64,000 nt of DNA from Mobula hypostoma (Eukaryota), in assembly GCF_963921235.1 (NCBI RefSeq), contig NC_086108.1, positions 15,252,001 to 15,316,000 on the forward strand. The letters are read 5' to 3'. The notes under the pieces were generated by a model. That model did no database searches. It saw only the letters and a program-made list of their open reading frames with translations, and was not told the DNA's origin. This document shows, one piece after another, positions 8,123 to 34,798 of this stretch. Position numbers and translations under genes: made by a program. The stretch's first letter is position 1. Every line of letters begins with the position of its first letter.

Positions 8123-10904
8123 CATCTAACTTTGCCCCATTCTGATGAACCATCATTAACGTGAAACTTTAGTTTTGTATTTCTTTCTATGGATGATTCA
8201 ATGGTTCAATTTAATATCAGAAGATGTATACAGTATACAACCTGAAATTCTTTCTCTTCACAGACATCCACAAAACAGAGAAAACCCTCAAAGAATGAAT
8301 GATAGAAAACGCTAGAACCCCAAAGCACTCCCTCCTCCAGCAAAAGCATCATTCCCCACCCCACCCACCAAGCAAACAATAGCAAAGCCCCTTAGAGACC
8401 ATAACCTAAAGTCCATCAAAAAGAATCACTGTTCATCCCAACTCTTCAAAGTTCAAGGTAAAATTATTATCAGAGTACATACATGTCTCCGCATCCAACC
8501 CTGAGATTCTTTTTCTGCAGGCATACTTAGCAAATCTATAGAGTAGTAACTGCAAACATCAGGAACTGTTAACTGTAAACAAACTGTGCAAATACAGATA
8601 TAAATAAATAGCAATAAATAACAAAGATGAAATAACAATGTTACAGAATCCTTAAATTAGTGTAGCTGTCCCCTTTGGTTCAAGAGCCTGATGGTTGAGG
8701 GGTAGTAGCTGTTCTTGAACCTGGTGATATGAGTTCTGGGGCACCTTTACCTTCTACCTGATGGCAACAGCGAGAAAAGAGCATAGCAAGGATGGTGAGG
8801 ATCTTTGATGATTTGATGCTCCTTTTCTAAGGCAACATTTCAGGCTCAACTGTTGGGAGGGGTTTACCTGTGATGTACTGGGACGAATCCACTACCTTTT
8901 GTGGGATTTTCCACCCAAAGGCATTGGTGTTCCCATACCAGGCTGTAATACAGCCAGTCAGCACACATTCCACCACCCGTCTATAGAAGCTTGCCAAGGT
9001 TTACTGATGACATGATGAACCTCCACAGACTCCTGAGGTAGCACCTCGACATCTCAACAGGCTCTCTCTCTCACTAAGATATCACTCCTGCCACAGCGAG
9101 AGGGGAGACCAACAGCTCACTGTTTCAATGTTACAGTCTGCAGTGTTGCTTATTTAAACAGCAGTGTACACTGCTATCTTGATGTTTTAATCTCCTGCGA
9201 TGCTTCAGTTGGCAACACCTGTGTGGAATCAGGTCATCCTCAGGGCTGCAGGGCCACACCCCAAAGGCGCACATCTTTAGCCTGCCTAGAGATATTGAAA
9301 ACGTTCGGCTGCTTGGTGAGCTCCAAGAGCAGGAACCGTGAAGAACTGCGGTTTGAATGCATCTGTAGATCTGAACTCCAATGGGTTCCCAGCCACCTTG
9401 AAAAGGAAAGAAAAGACATTAAATAGGAGAAATTAAACTGTTTTGTGGATGAACTGGAAGAAGTCTCCCTCTGGCGCCATCTGTAGCTCTTCGCCTGGCC
9501 TTCATTTTCCACCTTTTATACCTTGACTTCAGAGACTTCTAGCATTCATTGTTAGGGGAAAACACTTGCATTCCTTTTTTCTCTGTCAGTGGATGAGATC
9601 ACACTTTTGTCATTGTTTTCTCATTTACTTAAGCCTTCTTGCATCTTGCCTGCAGTCCACATTGCTACCCAGTTTTCTTTCATTAGTGTCGTACGATCTC
9701 CTCATTCATGCCATTTTACATTATGAATAACTGGGTCCCACCTCTGGTCCCTGCAGCACTTTACTCGTTACAGTCTCAAGGGTTGATTATTCCTACCCTA
9801 CATTTTCAGTCCCACACCTTGTTTGATAACTTCTTGTGTGGCACCTTATGAAAAGTCTTTTGGAAGGCTTAATATACCACTTCGAGAAAAACTGAGTGTA
9901 AAAAAATATTAGTATTTTGAGGAACATCAAGAAGAATGGGGGAAACCAGGAGGACCATATAGAAATTGTTATAACATTGAAACAGATGACGGATTCGGCA
10001 GCAGAGTGGATGATGTTGTGACTAACAGAGCTGAATTGCCAGAGAAAACCTGAAGCTGGTAATATAAAAGTCTTTATTCAATATAGATCTTCTGGATGTA
10101 ATCTAGTTCTCTCCTGACACAGTGTTTTCTATTTTTTGAACATAAAGATGATAATAATTTTAATGACTGTTTAAATGGCTACAATTATCTACTTTAAAAC
10201 TTTGAATGTAGACAGGTAACTTCACAGAATTGAACTTGAATTGAATTTTAAATTGAATTTTATTTAAATCTTACATCCATCCCACAACATGAGGGAGTAA
10301 AAATCTTTATGTTATGACTTGGTTGCAATGTACAGACATGTGCATTTATAAGTCTGTTGGCTTGTAGAAAGAAGCTGTCCTGTAGCCTTTTGGTCCTGGC
10401 TTTTATGCTGCTATACCATTTGCTAGACGGAAGCAGCTGAAACAGTTTATGGTTGGGGTGACTGGTTCTCCGATAATCTTTCAGGCCTTATTTATGTACC
10501 TGCTACTGTAAATGTCCTCAGTGGAGAGAAGTTCATGTCCACAGATGCAATGGGCTGTCCGTACCACTCTCTGCAGTGCCCAGCGATTAAGGTTGGTGCA
10601 ATTTCCATACCAGGCAGTGATACAGCCAGTCAGGATGTTCTCAATGGTGCCCCTGTAGAAGGGTTTGACGATTTGGGGACTCATTCCAAACTTCTTCAGT
10701 CGCCTGAGGTGGAAGAGTTGTTGTGCTTTTTTGCCACACAGCCAGTGTTTACAGTCCAGATGAGATCTTCAGTGATGTGTATACCGAGGAACTTAAAACT
10801 ACTCATCCTCTCAACTGCAGACCCATAGATGTTGATTGGAGCGAGCCTGTCTCCGTTCCTCCCATAATCCACAATCAGCTCTTTTGTTTTTTGGACATTG
10901 AGGG

Positions 10905-11127
10905 TGTACTGTATGGCCTACAGTATAATAAGGGACTACTTTATGTTGTAGGGACATGTCGTTGCATGGGGTATTAGGCACGTATTGAGCATGCGCTATT
11001 AGGCACATATTGATCTGTACGTGTGTGCGGAGTTCGGTTTCTGCCAGTAAAGAACCATGAACCTTAGCTCCTGTCTCCAGCATTTTTATTAATAGCGTTG
11101 TTGTGTAACCAGGCCACATACACAACA
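10905..11127 (+). repeat. 5' LTR
   Basis: tgtactgtatggcc...cacaaca; about 20 mismatches in 223 bp versus the 3' LTR by manual count, no indels, many at CpG sites. Confidence 0.93.
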
Positions 11128-11130
11128 AAT

Positions 11131-11148
11131 TGGCAACAAGGATGGGAT
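11131..11148 (+). promoter_or_regulatory. Primer binding site (tRNA-Ser(GCT)-like)
   Basis: TGGCAACAAGGATGGGAT, 3 nt after the 5' LTR. It equals TGGCGACGAGGATGGGAT (complement of the tRNA-Ser(GCT) 3' end as recalled) with two CpG-type G>A changes. Confidence 0.8.
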
Positions 11149-11377
11149 CATTGAGTTCTCCTAAGCAAATTGTACATTCTTTCAGATCATACCTGAAGAA
11201 CAGACATCCTGCACTATTTTTACAGTCCCCGAGGACCTGAACCACAGCCCGAAAGAGCCCTCGGGATCTCACATCAGAATTACTGTTCAAACTCTTTGCA
11301 AGTTGATCAGCGTAGAATGCAACCTTGTTCTCCAATTTATCATGCATTTCTTTAACTCCCAAAATGATGTGTTCCAT
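11143..11377 (-). pseudogene. RNF213: Captured RNF213 fragment (region leading into the RING domain)
   Basis: [78 protein letters not shown] aligns with recalled human RNF213 VEHVLLG...LDKCLRENSDVKTHGPFEAVMRTLCECKETA...RFGIQPCSICLGDAKDP. Confidence 0.85.
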
Positions 11378-11380
11378 CGG

Positions 11381-11765
11381 TCTTCTCCTGAGCATCTTCC
11401 CAGCACTCCTGCTAAACCACCAGCACAAAGATATGAAGCACGAATAGAAGATGGAAAGTTATATTATGAAAAGAGATGGCATAAAGGTCAGGCTATCTAT
11501 TTGGAATCTAAGGAGAATATGAAGATTGGCTGTGTAATTAGCTCAGTTGGAACAAATGAGATATGGGTAAGGAAGACAAGTGATAGCACAAAGATGTGTA
11601 TATATCTAGGACAGCTGCACAGAGGAGTCTTCATCATACGGGGGTGATCTGCTGCCTAGAACTCTTAGCAAGTTGGAGACACACATCTTCTTAACTCCCT
11701 ATGCTCAGAGGTCAACTTTTCATGACTTTTATATGGAAATCTGTATTAAAACAAACAAGTTTATT
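11381..11765 (+). pseudogene. SUDS3: Captured processed SUDS3 fragment (C-terminal CDS plus probable 3' UTR)
   Basis: [45 protein letters not shown]...[36 protein letters not shown] matches the SUDS3 C-terminus (...LFVIRRRSAA*). One codon is deleted, a premature TGA lies at 11645, the native TAG is at 11657-11659, and ATTAAA is near 11745. Confidence 0.9.
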
Positions 11766-12013
11766 GACAGTCGTTACCCGGAGAGGCAGAGAAGACCTCC
11801 CCAGAGATGAGTTATAAATGGGTCTTAGACCAAAAGTAAAAAAAAAAGGCTTGTTATAATTTGGTATTATTATGTTACTTTGTTAAGTTTTGATATTAAG
11901 TTACTAAGTAAACAAATGGTAGGCATTTGTATGTTAAGGGTAGACATATTTGTTTAGCATAGTGACCCAGTAAAAAAAACAGTTGATACACTATTAAAAT
12001 AAAAGGGGAGGGG

Positions 12014-12236
12014 TGTACTGTATGGCCTACAGTATAATAAGGGACTACTTTATGTTGTAGGGATACATCGTTGCATGCACTCTTAGGCACGTATTGAGCA
12101 TGCGCTATTAGGTGTGTATTGATCTGTACATATGTGCCGAGTTCGGTTTCTGCCAGTAAAGAACCATGAACCTTAACTCCTGTCTCCAGCGTTTTTATTA
12201 ATAGCATTGTTGTGTAACCAAGCCACGTACTCAACA
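12014..12236 (+). repeat. 3' LTR
   Basis: tgtactgtatggcc...ctcaaca, directly after the polypurine tract and followed by the TSD gaggg. Confidence 0.93.
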
Positions 12237-13744
12237 GAGGGAGAGGTGGTTATCTTGGCACCACTGTGTCAGGGTGTTAACCTCTCCTCTGTAGGCTGTC
12301 TCATTACTGCTAGAAATAAGGCTGATCAATGTTGTGTCATCTGTGAAGTTGATCAGCAAAATGGATGTGGTGGCACAGTCATGGATGTAAAGGGAGTAGA
12401 AGAGAGGACTCGACACAACCCTGGGGGGCATCTGTGTTGAGGGTTGGAGGGGCAGAGGTAACATCCTTACCACCTGTCGGCGATCCGAAAGGACATCTAG
12501 GATCCAGCTGCACAAGGTGGGGTGCAGGACGAGGTCAAGTCTGTAGGGAATTATGGTGTTGAACTGTAGTCCACGAACAGCGTTCTAGCGCTTGCATTCC
12601 TTTTCTCCAGGTGAGTGAAGACGGTGTGTAGTGCTGTGGCTGTGGTGTCATCGGTAAACTGGTTCTGTTGGTAGGCGAATTGTAGGGGTCCAGTGTAGGT
12701 GGTAGCATGCTGCAGATGTAGTCTTTAACCAGTCTCTCAAAGCATTTGCTTATAATTGAGGTAAGTGCAACAGGGCACAAATTATTTAGGCATGGTTTCG
12801 TTAGGTACAGAGACAATGATGGGCCACTTGAAGCAGGATGGTATTACACACTGGGAGAAGGAGAGATTAAAAATATCCGTAAACACACCAGCCATCTGTT
12901 CTGCACACACTTTGAGGACCTGCTCTCAAAAATTACATATTTACAAAGGTGGTGCACCTCACTAACCGAACTCTTGAATATTCAAATACTTTTGGTGGTC
13001 TGATAGCTTCTGAGCACAAACTCCAGACACCCAAAATGTACTTTTATTGCAATGTTGAGAGATAGCTCTTTGATCATACAACTAGCCGGAATATTGTGAC
13101 AAAAGCGACCTGTCCTAAACTTTGCAGTAAGTGGGAGAGATATGCTTTCAACAATATGCTAATAAAGGAGATGTCCTATCAAAGCCTTCCCTTGTCTCAA
13201 ACTGGATTTTTCAATCGCCACCAATTAACATGAGCATTCATCTTTTGCCTTCCCCTTTGCAGTTTCAATGGTATATAATCAGAACGTCCCACACCCAGTG
13301 ATAGGTTTCAATAATATTAAAGTGTCAGTTGAAGTAAGTTAAATTGTAAACAGGCTTTATTCCCTGAAGACTGGTTCTTATTTTAATTATTATCGGCTAT
13401 CCAGGATTTCATAATTCCTGAATTATCCCTAACAGGTGAAACTGGCAAATGTGCGGAGGTAGAGACAGTCAGTTGTAGTGATAGCATGGCTATGTAGTCT
13501 GATGCATTGGCTGCAACATGATGCTGAGATTGCAAGCAATCTAGTTCAGTTTTAGACATTTGCCAGATAGAAGAAGTGGAATCAGTAGTTTGGGAGCAGA
13601 CTCACATATGGAAAGTGAAAAGAATGACTTTTCCATGCTAGTTCCTTTTAGAATGTTTTCTCGCTATGGTATGTATGTGTTTAGTCTCTATTTCCTGTCC
13701 ATTTGCTGACTAAACTGTCCATCATTGCTATGCTTGTTGAACAG

Positions 13745-17984: not shown

Positions 17985-20183
17985 ATAAACATACAAATTA
18001 GCCAGAAAAAGCGGCTCACCTGAGGACTGGGAGAAATTCAGAGTCCAGCAGAGGAGGACAAAGGGCTTAATTAGGAAAGGGAGAAAAGATTATGAGAGAA
18101 AACTGGCAGGGAACATAAAAACTGACTGTAAAAGCTTTTATAGATATGTGAAAAGAAAAAGATTGGTTAAGACAAATGTAGGTCCCTTACAGTCAGAAAC
18201 GGGTGAATTGATCATGGGGAACAAGGACATGGCAGATCAATTGAATAACTACTTTGGTTCTGTCTTCACTAAGGAGGACATAAATAATCTTCCGGAAATA
18301 GGAGGGGACCGAGGGTCTAGTGAGATGGAGGAACTGAGGGAAATACATGTTAGTAGGGAAGTGGTGTTAGGTAAATTGAAGGGAATAAAGGCAGATAAAT
18401 CCCCAGGGCGAGATGGTCTGCATCCCAGAGTGCTTAAGGAAGTAGCCCAAGAAATAGTGGATGCATTAGTGATAATTTTTCAAAACTCTTTAGATTCTGG
18501 ACTAGTTTCTGAAGATTGGAAGGTGGCTAATGTAACCATGCTTTTTAAAAAAGGAGGGAGAGAGAAACCGGGGAGTTATAGACCGGTTAGCCTGATATCG
18601 GTGGTGGGGAAAATGCTAGAGTCAGTTATCAAAGATGTGATAACAGCACATTTGGAAAGCGGTGAAATCATCGGACAAAGTCAGCATGGATTTGTGAAAG
18701 GAAAATCATGTCTGACGAGCCTCACAGAATTTTTTGAGGATGTAACTAGTAGAGTGGATTGAGGAGAACCAGTGGATGTGGTATATTTGGATTTTCAAAA
18801 GGCTTTTGACAAGGTCCCACATAGGAGATTAGGGTGCAAACTTAAAGCACACGGTATTGGAGGTATGGTATTGATGTGGATAGAGAATTGGTTGGCAGAC
18901 AGGAAGCAAAGAGTGGGAATAAATGGGACCTTTTCAGAATGGCAGGCAGTGACTAGTGGGGTACTGCAAGGCTCAGTGCTGGGACCCCAGTTGTTTACAA
19001 TATATATTAATGACTTAGATGAGGGAATTAAATGCAGCATCTCCAAGTTTGTGGATGACACGAAGCTGGGCAGCAGTGTTAGCTGTGAGGAGGATGCTAA
19101 GAGGATGCAGGGTGACTTGGATAGGTTAGGTGAGTGGGCAAATTCACGGCAGATGCAATTTAATGTGGATAAATGTGAGGTTATCCACTTTGGTGGAAAG
19201 AACAGGAAATCAGATTATTATCTGAATGGTGGCCGATTAGGAAAAGGGGAAGTGCAATGAGACCTGGGTGTCATTATACACCAGTCATTGAAAGTGGGCA
19301 TGCAGGTACAGCAGGCAGTGAAAAAGGCGAATGGTATGCTGGTATTCATAGCAAGAGGATTCGAGTACAGGAGCATGGAGGTACTACTGCAGTTGTACAA
19401 GGCCTTGGTGAGACCACACCTGGAGTATTGTGTGCAGTTTTGGTCCCCTAATCTGAGGAAAGACATTCTTGCCATAGAGGGGGTACAAAGAAGGTTCAGC
19501 AGATTGATGCAACACACATCAAAGTTGCTGGTGAACGCAGCAGGCCATGCAGCATCTCTAGGAAGAGGTACAGTTGCGAAACGTCAACTGAACCTCTTCC
19601 TAGAGATGCTGCCTGGCCTGCTGCGTTCACCAGCAACTTTGATGTGTGTTGCTTGAATTTCCAGCATGTGTAGAATTCCTCGTGTTTGCATTTCTAAATT
19701 CACCAGATTGATTCCTGGGATGGCAGGACTTTCATATGATGAAAGACTGGATCGACTAGGCTTATACTCGCTGGAATTTAGAAGATTGAGGGGGGATCTT
19801 ATTGAAACGTATAAAATCTTAAAGGGATTGGACAGGCTAGATGCAGGAAGATTGTTCCTGATGTTGGGGAAGTCCAGAACGAGAGGTCACAGTTTAAGGA
19901 TAAAGGGGAAGCCTTTTAGGACCGAGATGAAGAAAAACTTCTTCACACAGAGTGGTGAACCTGTGGAATTCTCTGCCACAGGAAACAGTTGAGGCCAGTT
20001 CATTGGCTATATTTAAGAGGGAGTTAGATATGGCCCTTGTGGCTAAAGGGATCAGCGGGTATGGAGAGAAAGCAGATACAGGGTTCTGAGTTGGATGATC
20101 AGCCGTGATCATACTGAATGGCGATGCAGGCTCGAAGGGCCGAATAGCCTACTCCTGCACCTATTTTCTATGTTTCTATGTTT
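17985..20183 (+). mobile_element. Relatively young 5'-truncated CR1 LINE
   Basis: Nearly continuous RT reading frame (18148-19992) with few stops and a (TTTCTATG)n tail; interrupted at 19509-19698. Confidence 0.92.
19509..19698. mobile_element. Penelope-derived hairpin insertion with 14-bp TSD
   Basis: Inverted arms at ~19509-19576 and ~19586-19652; TSD ttcagcagattgat (19495-19508) / ttcaccagattgat (19699-19712). Confidence 0.8.
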
Positions 20184-34315: not shown

Positions 34316-34798
34316 ACTGGTGACATCCCAATTTTTGGTGCCACTGGCTATGAAGAGTATCTCCGGGACCAAGAAGTGGCTGAGCGCTGGTACCGTTACA
34401 ATCCTCGACTAACGTGCCTGTACTGCGGCAAGTCTTTTAACCAGAAGGGGAGTCTGGACCGCCACATGCGGTTGCACATGGGCATAACGCCTTTTGTGTG
34501 CCGGATCTGTGGGAAAAAGTACACCCGCAAAGACCAGTTGGAATATCACATACGCAAGCACACTGGGAATAAGCCCTTCCACTGCCATGTGTGTGGCAAG
34601 AGCTTCCCATTCCAGGCCATTTTAAACCAGCACTTCAAAAAGAACCATCCTGGTTGCACATTACTGGAAGGGCTGCACAGTATCTCACCAGAGACCACTT
34701 CCAAGGGACAGAACGGACAACAGTCACCACTTCAGGACCAGCCAAAAGCAGTGGGTGAACTAATTCACACTTCCATCTCAACTACGGGGCCTGACTGA
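34316..34798 (+). CDS. ZBTB37: ZBTB37 coding exon 3 (three C2H2 zinc fingers and stop)
   Basis: Acceptor ttctcttctag ends at 34315; TGDIPIFGATGYEEYLRDQEVAERWYRYNPRLTCLYCGKSFNQKGSLDRHMRLH...STTGPD*. Spliced CDS is 869+103+483 = 1455 nt, 484 aa. Confidence 0.96.
   Translation, partial: TGDIPIFGATGYEEYLRDQEVAERWYRYNPRLTCLYCGKSFNQKGSLDRHMRLHMGITPFVCRICGKKYTRKDQLEYHIRKHTGNKPFHCHVCGKSFPFQAILNQHFKKNHPGCTLLEGLHSISPETTSKGQNGQQSPLQDQPKAVGELIHTSISTTGPD

Follow-up and report, generated by a model that had tools for sequence, protein, structure and literature searches.

How do pieces of two host genes, lying back to back on opposite strands, come to sit between the LTRs of a retrotransposon in the genome of the ray Mobula hypostoma? 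The locus lies in a stretch of 64,000 nucleotides (the window: contig NC_086108.1, positions 15,252,001 to 15,316,000), for which an earlier note had proposed a Gypsy-type shell carrying antisense RNF213 and sense SUDS3 fragments. The window element is a dead copy of a non-autonomous Ty3/Gypsy LTR retrotransposon family and very probably represents a deletion derivative of that family, assembled stepwise by RT template switching. Its parts, in window coordinates, are these:

10696..10899, - strand: left flank, downstream part of an interrupted high-copy repeat with a LINE RT-like reading frame
10900..10904, + strand: 5' target-site duplication (TSD) GAGGG
10905..11127, + strand: 5' LTR, 223 bp, TG...CA
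11131..11148, + strand: primer-binding site (PBS), 16/18 nt complementary to the 3' end of tRNA-Ser(GCT)
11139..11376, - strand: spliced RNF213 mRNA fragment, three host exons and two junctions, antisense to the element
11377..11659, + strand: 3' part of the SUDS3 CDS, host exons 10-12 and two junctions, decayed, without start codon
11660..11772, + strand: SUDS3 3' UTR, ending in 5-7 nt of microhomology with the pol end
11769..11810, + strand: last codons of Gypsy pol (integrase C-terminal tail)
11811..12000, + strand: retroelement 3' untranslated region
12001..12013, + strand: polypurine tract (PPT)
12014..12236, + strand: 3' LTR, 223 bp
12237..12241, + strand: 3' TSD GAGGG
12242..12584, - strand: right flank, upstream part of the interrupted repeat

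Anatomy of the window element

The element is 1,332 bp long, and its TG...CA LTR pair (20 substitutions in 223 bp, 91% alike), short TSD, tRNA PBS and PPT are those of a Ty3/Gypsy element, as the note had described them. Both mismatches in the PBS are compatible with CpG decay, and the same tRNA-Ser(GCT) is the PBS match in all four loci scanned. The proposal of a single, integrase-made insertion likewise stands: the empty-site motif of the repeat that it interrupts was counted 8,987 times (at up to 2 mismatches), the control once, and so the insertion is clean, with a 5-bp duplication. The interrupted repeat is presumably a LINE; its LINE RT-like reading frame has no Pfam match. Pfam likewise returned nothing significant for the ORFs of the window, and the protein identifications are based on PDB, homolog and DNA matches. 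The antisense piece matches human RNF213 chains (phmmer, E 2.5e-11) and is 92.9% identical over 238 nt to the spliced host transcript; its bounds, first placed at 11143-11377, are refined to 11139-11376, so that its first 10 nt also belong to the PBS. The sense piece matches PDB 7sxi (E 1.5e-36) and host SUDS3 CDS 675-960 (93.4% identity), with 3' UTR reaching about 11770. For the pol tail, RYPERQRRPPQR, matches lie at the C-terminus of the nearest Gag-Pol proteins and at the 3' ends of autonomous Gypsy copies. Each host piece crosses two exon-exon junctions, and DNA-level capture of exons is excluded by SUDS3 and RNF213 sequences that span exon junctions without introns. An assembly artefact is also rejected, because an independent short copy (L126) has its own TSD and because contigs of a DNA-labelled run from another organism bridge the protease-SUDS3 and RNF213-SUDS3 joins of the family. 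At the back-to-back join of RNF213 and SUDS3, the window copy has lost about 20 bases more than this sister copy.

The cargo family and its autonomous partner

The window copy belongs to a family of about 380 copies, 268 of them counted, by junction counts that replaced first-look candidate totals of 1,599, 1,705 and 154. In the 3.3-kb form A, SUDS3 replaces RT-RH-IN and follows the protease in frame, a natural frame of 321 aa connecting the end of the protease to SUDS3; the gag-protease frame has no significant Pfam match. The host SUDS3 gene has 12 exons over 59 kb, including one AT-AC intron, and all 12 exons are joined (11 junctions) in copies L061 and L048, with 11 of 12 detected as matches in L051. 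The note was therefore right about captured mRNAs and serial capture and wrong about fragments taken directly into an empty shell: SUDS3 entered first, and whole. A 24-nt deletion in the SUDS3 cargo is common to 55 of the 56 copies that cover the site, which argues for a single SUDS3 capture event. The sampled copies nest as form A (SUDS3 only), forms B and C (plus RNF213) and the short window form; one candidate, L125, belongs to a different family and was dropped. The family is mobile, as had been predicted: among the 31 of 61 copies that yielded LTR and TSD statistics (the other 30 were skipped because the boundary motif was not found), TSDs are exact in 24 and within one mismatch in 30, and all 31 differ. 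All sampled relatives carry the same cargo, and consequently the family is not the general capture vehicle that had been envisaged.

An autonomous Gypsy partner, also anticipated, is present in the genome. A protease 90-94% identical to that of the family continues into RT at 12 of 16 RT loci tested, and five of seven autonomous 3' ends have the same tail and LTR; at the ends examined, the partner's protease reads into RT and its pol end adjoins PPT and LTR. Together with the nearest Gag-Pol proteins, these ends indicate a Ty3/Gypsy parent with PR-RT-RH-IN order and no env. Because autonomous LTRs are only about 72-79% like the window LTR (gapped BLAST), the sampled partner, at about 240 copies, may be a sister subfamily.

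LTR-mediated retroposition, a known mechanism, is the mechanism of the cargo family. The cargo is intron-free (11 SUDS3 junctions in the family, two in the window), SUDS3 substitutes for the internal RT-RH-IN, and the switch points have microsimilarity without poly(A). Five family junctions have microhomologies of 7, 5-7, 8, 3 and 3 nt, and further junctions read have 6, 4 and 7 nt, the overall span being 3-10 nt. The first step of assembly, template switching into SUDS3 mRNA, can be read directly in the sequence: in an autonomous Gypsy particle, RT switched from element RNA to co-packaged, fully spliced SUDS3 mRNA and then returned, exchanging RT-RH-IN for the whole SUDS3 CDS with short UTR pieces. 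Since every form kept LTRs, PBS and PPT, the autonomous partner would have been able to copy them all in trans, in one burst. In three sequencing runs that are presumed to be RNA, 30 of 30 bins are covered, and as DNA carry-over is possible they are not counted as evidence.

The short form and the antisense insert

How the window form lost most of its interior is best asked at the join between PBS and RNF213, which occurs at three places in the genome (the window copy, L126 and L037), two of them complete short copies. The deletion removed the leader, gag, the protease, most of SUDS3 and most of RNF213 (~2.9 kb). Its endpoint is a site in RNF213 with a 10-nt match to the primer tRNA, a pattern suggestive of second strand transfer that went out of alignment. 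The stretch of plus-strand strong-stop DNA copied from the tRNA would have mispaired with this 10-nt tRNA-like site in the RNF213 insert in place of the short PBS, deleting about 2.9 kb and leaving the 1.3-kb window form; the junction is plain to read, and the route to it is the probable part. In four of seven form-B interiors scanned, no match to the 3' end of the 18-mer is longer than that at the tRNA-like site (10 nt in three, 7 nt in one); in the other three the site is mutated. Ordinary family PBS copies match the tRNA over just 11 nt and none of 398 extends to an 18-nt match, so that an 18-nt strong-stop tail is supposed rather than seen for the family. This is one reason to consider a simple deletion between two AGG triplets, with the longer tRNA match a coincidence; a plain 3-nt (AGG) deletion would, moreover, give an identical sequence. 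Such a deletion is nevertheless unlikely, though to be taken seriously, as only one of the 67-80 AGG sites in each form-B interior is followed by 7 further nt of tRNA match, and it is there that the join lies. As evidence on a possible shared origin, the window copy and L126 have 2 of 17 rare alleles in common, and the tree is star-shaped.

Before the deletion comes the RNF213 insert itself. A subfamily, comprising forms B and C and reaching 4.2 kb, has within its first cargo, SUDS3, an antisense RNF213 insert of about 1 kb that is spliced, matches eight host exons without introns and replaces no element sequence. An 8-nt microhomology at its entry straddles an RNF213 exon-exon junction and thus exists only in spliced RNA; the return junction to SUDS3 has only 3 nt. 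A splice origin of that return junction (exon 9/10 boundary) was rejected, since host antisense gives a different join. Internally the insert has lost about 120 nt between 4-nt repeats, and it is surrounded by a SUDS3 direct repeat of 10 nt in form B, or about 22 nt when B and C are read together; no single copy was found to combine the long left RNF213 junction with the 3' half of SUDS3, and hence the first two-cargo form is inferred from B and C together. In one lineage, a nascent plus strand may have annealed by the 8 nt to spliced RNF213 mRNA, about 1 kb would have been copied and RT would have returned, giving an antisense, intron-free insert within SUDS3. The junctions are observed, and the route between them is a probable reconstruction.

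The same product could in principle arise at the DNA level, if a genomic form A were nicked or broken, a plus-strand 3' end were primed on the mRNA, and LINE RT or RNA-templated repair copied it; the direct repeat would then be a target-site duplication, and the altered copy would later become a source. Batoid genomes are described as dominated by LINEs, and the flanking repeat fits. The insert, however, is without poly(A) and both its ends lie within CDS, the deletion of about 120 nt resembles the family's other RT slips, and the same particle had already taken one mRNA, all of which makes this origin improbable. Quite doubtful is a third origin, from the antisense transcript of an older RNF213 retrocopy caught in ordinary minus-strand synthesis. 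It would need only the standard sense-capture chemistry described by Tan et al. (PMC5131818), but 20 of 20 RNF213-positive loci fetched are in this element, and no free-standing RNF213 retrocopy was seen among 40 scored of 154 candidates. Capture of spliced RNF213 mRNA during plus-strand synthesis is accordingly preferred.

Burst, probable passengers and known systems

The family tree (49 rows) is a star with end branches near 4%, and the copies radiated in a single burst and decay neutrally. Singleton changes number 443 non-synonymous (stops included) to 126 synonymous, and variants in three or more copies 93 to 33, ratios near the neutral expectation of 2.5-4. The differences from host SUDS3 shared by most copies are 12 synonymous to 3 non-synonymous; these cannot be polarised, and early selection on the cargo is thus possible. 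The cargo is most likely a passenger, decaying neutrally, and selection on it is not shown. Did the cargo nonetheless aid the spread, either as protease-released SUDS3 lacking 8 residues and acting against Sin3-HDAC silencing or as antisense RNF213 RNA that damped an innate-immune ligase? The fusion is in frame just past the protease, the whole CDS was kept, the shared 12:3 set departs from the singletons (p 5e-6), and the cargo family, at about 380 copies, is larger than its partner, at about 240. An in-frame fusion, however, has a one-in-three chance. Purifying selection acting on the host gene after the capture is itself expected to leave an excess of synonymous differences, and when measured against RNF213 as a yardstick the excess is not significantly different (p 0.05-0.36). 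Forms B and C multiplied even though SUDS3 is interrupted in them, and variation among copies is neutral. This reading is very improbable, and it is just as hard to credit a Gypsy that, with a host silencing subunit in frame behind its protease and an antisense piece of an innate-immune ligase, spread by weakening host control through a SUDS3 decoy lacking 8 residues and antisense or small RNAs directed at RNF213. If true, it would parallel, among retrotransposons, the retroviruses that transduce oncogenes, and its hundreds of copies could still be a source of small RNAs against two host genes.

These findings have implications for how retrocopies are counted. A survey of 244 vertebrate genomes (bioRxiv 10.64898/2026.06.26.734816) has SUDS3 in its list of the five genes with the most retrocopies in cartilaginous fishes and attributes such lists to non-LTR activity plus selective filtering. 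In the Mobula hypostoma genome the SUDS3 copies go back to a single capture, which multiplied thereafter within an LTR element. A retrocopy count can thus measure transposon bursts rather than selection at the gene level, and the burst probably explains the rank of SUDS3. The same reading can be tested for MIPOL1, SDF2L1, SLU7 and ZNF276. Likewise, the 8-residue deletion of the cargo is present in five database proteins named 'SDS3-like', which are probably element copies annotated as genes. No published description of the cargo family was found in the literature, Repbase and Dfam lying outside the search; neither SUDS3 (or SDS3) nor RNF213 is mentioned in the main text of a preprint on manta and devil ray genomes, and the supplements of both preprints may list copies. 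Since parent, cargo genes and intermediate forms are all present in a single genome, the family is a clear natural record of rare reverse transcription, including antisense capture of spliced mRNA and an apparently primer-tRNA-guided deletion.

What is unusual in the ray family is its scale, the antisense spliced cargo and this tRNA-guided form of deletion. As in the LTR-mediated retrocopies of Tan et al. (2016, PMC5131818), ORFs are swapped for spliced mRNA, switches have microsimilarity, both LTRs are kept, cargo can be multi-gene and further rounds of retroposition follow. Unlike those described there, the ray chimera exists at hundreds of copies, with a whole CDS in frame with gag-protease and a second cargo that is antisense, spliced and inside the first; antisense cargo is not described in the text of that paper as examined, which has 0 matches for 'opposite', 'orientation' or 'reverse strand'. 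Maize Bs1, as presented in the same paper, is similarly a non-autonomous LTR element that combines exons from several host genes, its switch points being identical in every copy, but it is a plant element with partial exons and one to five copies. CrocERV29 (KIT-ligand) and CrocERV31 (nectin3) also multiplied with captured host mRNA, although they are retroviral rather than Gypsy, number nine and six copies and are reported to be under purifying selection on the cargo (PMC4299795), whereas the ray copies vary neutrally among themselves.

The window element, being small and non-coding with two LTRs, PBS, PPT and a 5-bp TSD, has the features of a TRIM. Gene-carrying plant TRIMs (PMC4717578) resemble it in size (1.2-1.4 kb; 1,172-1,449 bp), in a cargo made of exons alone, from one gene or several, in a 5-bp TSD and in having related longer elements. 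That it belongs to an undescribed TRIM-like shell family taking varied gene fragments directly is, despite this likeness and the existence of L126, likewise short and complete and with a TSD of its own, extremely improbable: only three places carry the junction, long parent forms account for every base, and every sampled copy has the same cargo. Rather than an amplified miniature family, the window form is a late deletion of longer forms, arising as an infrequent side product of a larger cargo family. The closest likeness to its deletion is aberrant second-strand transfer in HIV-1 (PMC12657518), where deletions likewise run from the PBS with primer-tRNA sequence at the join; there the tRNA is read beyond 18 nt, whereas the window match ends at 18 nt, and, unlike in the HIV-1 proviruses described, the acceptor in the window is captured host sequence.

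The window element and its family

The earlier note had proposed a complete integrated Gypsy-type element, and its boundaries hold at 10900-12241:

10900-10904, 5' target-site duplication (TSD), GAGGG
10905-11127, 5' LTR, 223 bp
12014-12236, 3' LTR, 223 bp
12237-12241, 3' TSD, GAGGG

The two LTRs differ at 20 of 223 sites. The insertion sits inside a high-copy repeat; with up to two mismatches, the motif of the empty repeat site is present 8,987 times and the control once. The proposed antisense RNF213 and sense SUDS3 cargo is likewise confirmed: a minus-strand frame matches RNF213 (E 2.5e-11), and the C-terminal domain of SUDS3 is recognisable in a plus-strand frame (E 1.5e-36), the nearest SUDS3 proteins coming from rays (Pristis, Mobula). 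The exon structure of both fragments also agrees with that proposal, as the SUDS3 piece comprises exons 10-12 and the RNF213 piece crosses two exon junctions. A BTB-domain exon lies at 403-1335 (+; Pfam BTB, E 1.6e-26), and an exon further downstream, at about 34415-34660 (+), encodes three C2H2 fingers; the element is probably situated, in the same orientation, within an intron of this ZBTB gene, which may be ZBTB37-like. A reverse-transcriptase frame fragment at 17989-18759 (+; Pfam RVT_1) is unrelated to the element.

A DNA search of the 3.48-Gb genome scored, besides the window itself, 40 places at 85-91% identity, and layouts were read from 39 of these (about 10 kb of flank each) and from 20 RNF213-positive loci. 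Two layouts predominate. Form A (about 3.3 kb) runs LTR, primer-binding site (PBS), leader, gag, protease, SUDS3, pol tail, polypurine tract (PPT), LTR; form B (about 4.2 kb) differs from it by an insertion of about 935 bp within the cargo. Form C (loci L070-L075) has lost the 3' part of SUDS3 and, in five of six loci, carries 76 extra bases at the insert's left end. In the 31 of 61 copies with all four LTR ends parsable, TSDs are exact 5-bp repeats in 24, agree within one mismatch in 30 and are distinct in all 31, as expected of the mobile family suggested earlier; LTR pairs differ by 8.6% on average (range 4.5-12.6%). A 25-bp tandem repeat in the LTRs (for example, window 10960-11010) is present in just one LTR of the pair in 20 of the 31, a pattern that suggests intermolecular transfer or slippage while the plus strand was made; dates estimated from the LTRs may be biased by it. 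With one mismatch allowed, 268 places carry the protease-SUDS3 junction motif (control 0); as 37 of 53 sampled copies have it, the family scales to about 380 copies. The 49 copies placed in a tree radiate as a star, their terminal branches close to 0.04 in length. Further, a form B interior is covered in all 30 of its bins by contigs from four sequencing runs, of four organisms, and three of the runs also contain the form C join; the burst therefore probably predates the split of these organisms.

Two spliced cargoes

The host SUDS3 gene, located by a motif absent from the copies (one match), lies on contig C78, where its 12 exons span 59 kb and its CDS (319 aa) is intact. All 12 exons are joined in two copies (L061 and L048), and intron 7, with its AT-AC ends of minor-spliceosome type, has been correctly removed. 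In one natural copy, a single open frame of 321 aa runs uninterrupted from the end of the protease into SUDS3. Because a 24-nt deletion between 6-nt repeats is common to 55 of the 56 copies covering the site, SUDS3 was captured in a single event; five of 120 database proteins listed share the deletion, all named SDS3-like and all from two Mobula species. Comparison with both parents reveals microhomology at the switch points, 7 nt where the element enters the 5' UTR and 5-7 nt where it leaves the 3' UTR.

By its substitution pattern, this cargo is most likely a passenger. Counted against host SUDS3, non-CpG singletons divide into 443 non-synonymous (stops included) and 126 synonymous, and variants in at least three copies into 93 and 33; both ratios are within the 2.5-4 expected under neutrality, with no difference between them (p 0.35). 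Early selection on the protease-SUDS3 fusion may be read from the differences common to at least 70% of copies (3 non-synonymous, 12 synonymous; p 5e-6 against singletons), but such an excess would be expected if the host gene went on evolving under purifying selection after the capture, and relative to the RNF213 yardstick it does not reach significance (p 0.05-0.36). SUDS3 is broken in forms B and C, yet both multiplied.

The RNF213 insert corresponds to eight exons of an RNF213 gene on contig C68 at about 88-98% identity, lacks intron sequence, and has lost about 120 nt internally between 4-nt repeats. At the left junction of form C, SUDS3 and RNF213 have 8 nt in common, and because this overlap crosses an RNF213 exon-exon boundary, spliced RNA served as the template. 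At the return to SUDS3, the two have 3 nt in common. Since copying mRNA yields antisense, finding the insert antisense in the plus strand of the element implies that the plus-strand 3' end was extended on mRNA. A switch of reverse transcriptase to RNF213 mRNA during plus-strand synthesis inside the particle would do this, and we consider gain by that route reasonably probable. That a LINE enzyme, or repair, placed RNF213 in a genomic copy is unlikely, and capture from an antisense retrocopy transcript improbable. Between host RNF213 (G000:C68:48810661-48833773 in this genome) and the captured version, the shared changes number 25 at 752 non-synonymous sites and 5 at 210 synonymous sites. This hints that ray RNF213 evolves fast or that the donor was a slightly different paralogue; a more distant second paralogue lies near C68:41.3 Mb.

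Origin of the short form

The window copy is a form B in which the PBS runs directly into the final 240 bp of the RNF213 insert. This join occurs at exactly three places: the window; L126, likewise a complete short copy (TSD GTGAC); and L037 (G000:C50:105074213-105084200), a hybrid in which a window-type 5' end (PBS-RNF213-SUDS3 piece) leads into a full form B at the start of gag, with the RNF213 end present twice. The TRIM-like mobile family proposed earlier thus stands as a mobile family and not as an amplified miniature one. The primer is tRNA-Ser(GCT) in all four loci considered. Ordinary copies match the tRNA over 11 nt (398 places) versus 16 of 18 in the window PBS, the extra match deriving from a site in the RNF213 insert identical to the last 10 nt of the 18-mer. 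Standing among 67-80 AGG sites, it is the best such site in four of seven interiors scanned and mutated in the other three. A second strand transfer misaligned onto this tRNA-like site could create the PBS-start deletion, a route that the match makes likely; a plain 3-nt deletion would give an identical product. HIV-1 PBS-start deletions with tRNA sequence, as described in excerpts of PMC12657518, are related to the misaligned transfer proposed here. The window copy afterwards lost about 20 further bases at the RNF213-SUDS3 join, hence the back-to-back appearance of the two fragments.

A different, cargo-free miniature LTR element, L125 (G000:C64:14790950-14792500; LTRs about 200 bp, interior about 230 bp), also has a tRNA-Ser PBS, with similar LTR ends at C21:20452072 and C55:64490833; elements of this type are a true TRIM-like family. 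Several other LTR families (L111-L122) have a full 18-nt tRNA-Ser(GCT) PBS.

Autonomous partner and known systems

By its gag-protease frame, the family comes nearest to Gypsy Gag-Pol proteins encoded as a single ORF, with identities reaching 59-64%. When the genome was queried with the RT-RH part of one of these, and upstream DNA examined at 16 of 93 matches, 12 loci had a protease 90-94% identical to the family's running on into RT. Of seven 3' ends, five showed the same pol tail, PPT and a related LTR; LTR and PBS were found at two of seven 5' ends, one pair with matching TSD. The autonomous Gypsy sought in the earlier note is thereby found, with a related rather than the same LTR. Most partner RT matches contain stops, and the partner junction motif occurs 183 times (about 240 after scaling).

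Our literature search found no description of a Gypsy family carrying SUDS3 and RNF213. A vertebrate survey ranks SUDS3 among the five genes with the most retrocopies in cartilaginous fishes, and its main text, in the portion available, mentions LTR solely within "non-LTR" (bioRxiv 10.64898/2026.06.26.734816). On the features tested, the family behaves as LTR-mediated retrocopies do in the available text of Tan et al. (2016, PMC5131818), which already describes secondary retroposition and cargo from several genes. The amplified examples in the accessible parts of these sources are small, with one to five copies for Bs1 (PMC5131818) and nine and six for crocodilian ERVs with captured cargo (PMC4299795), whereas the SUDS3 family has about 380. 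Gene-carrying plant TRIMs, as excerpted from PMC4717578, are similar in size to the window form, which unlike them has no amplified miniature family. The window copy is a dead by-product, and the family an unusually large, well-resolved new case of a known process, real and well explained.
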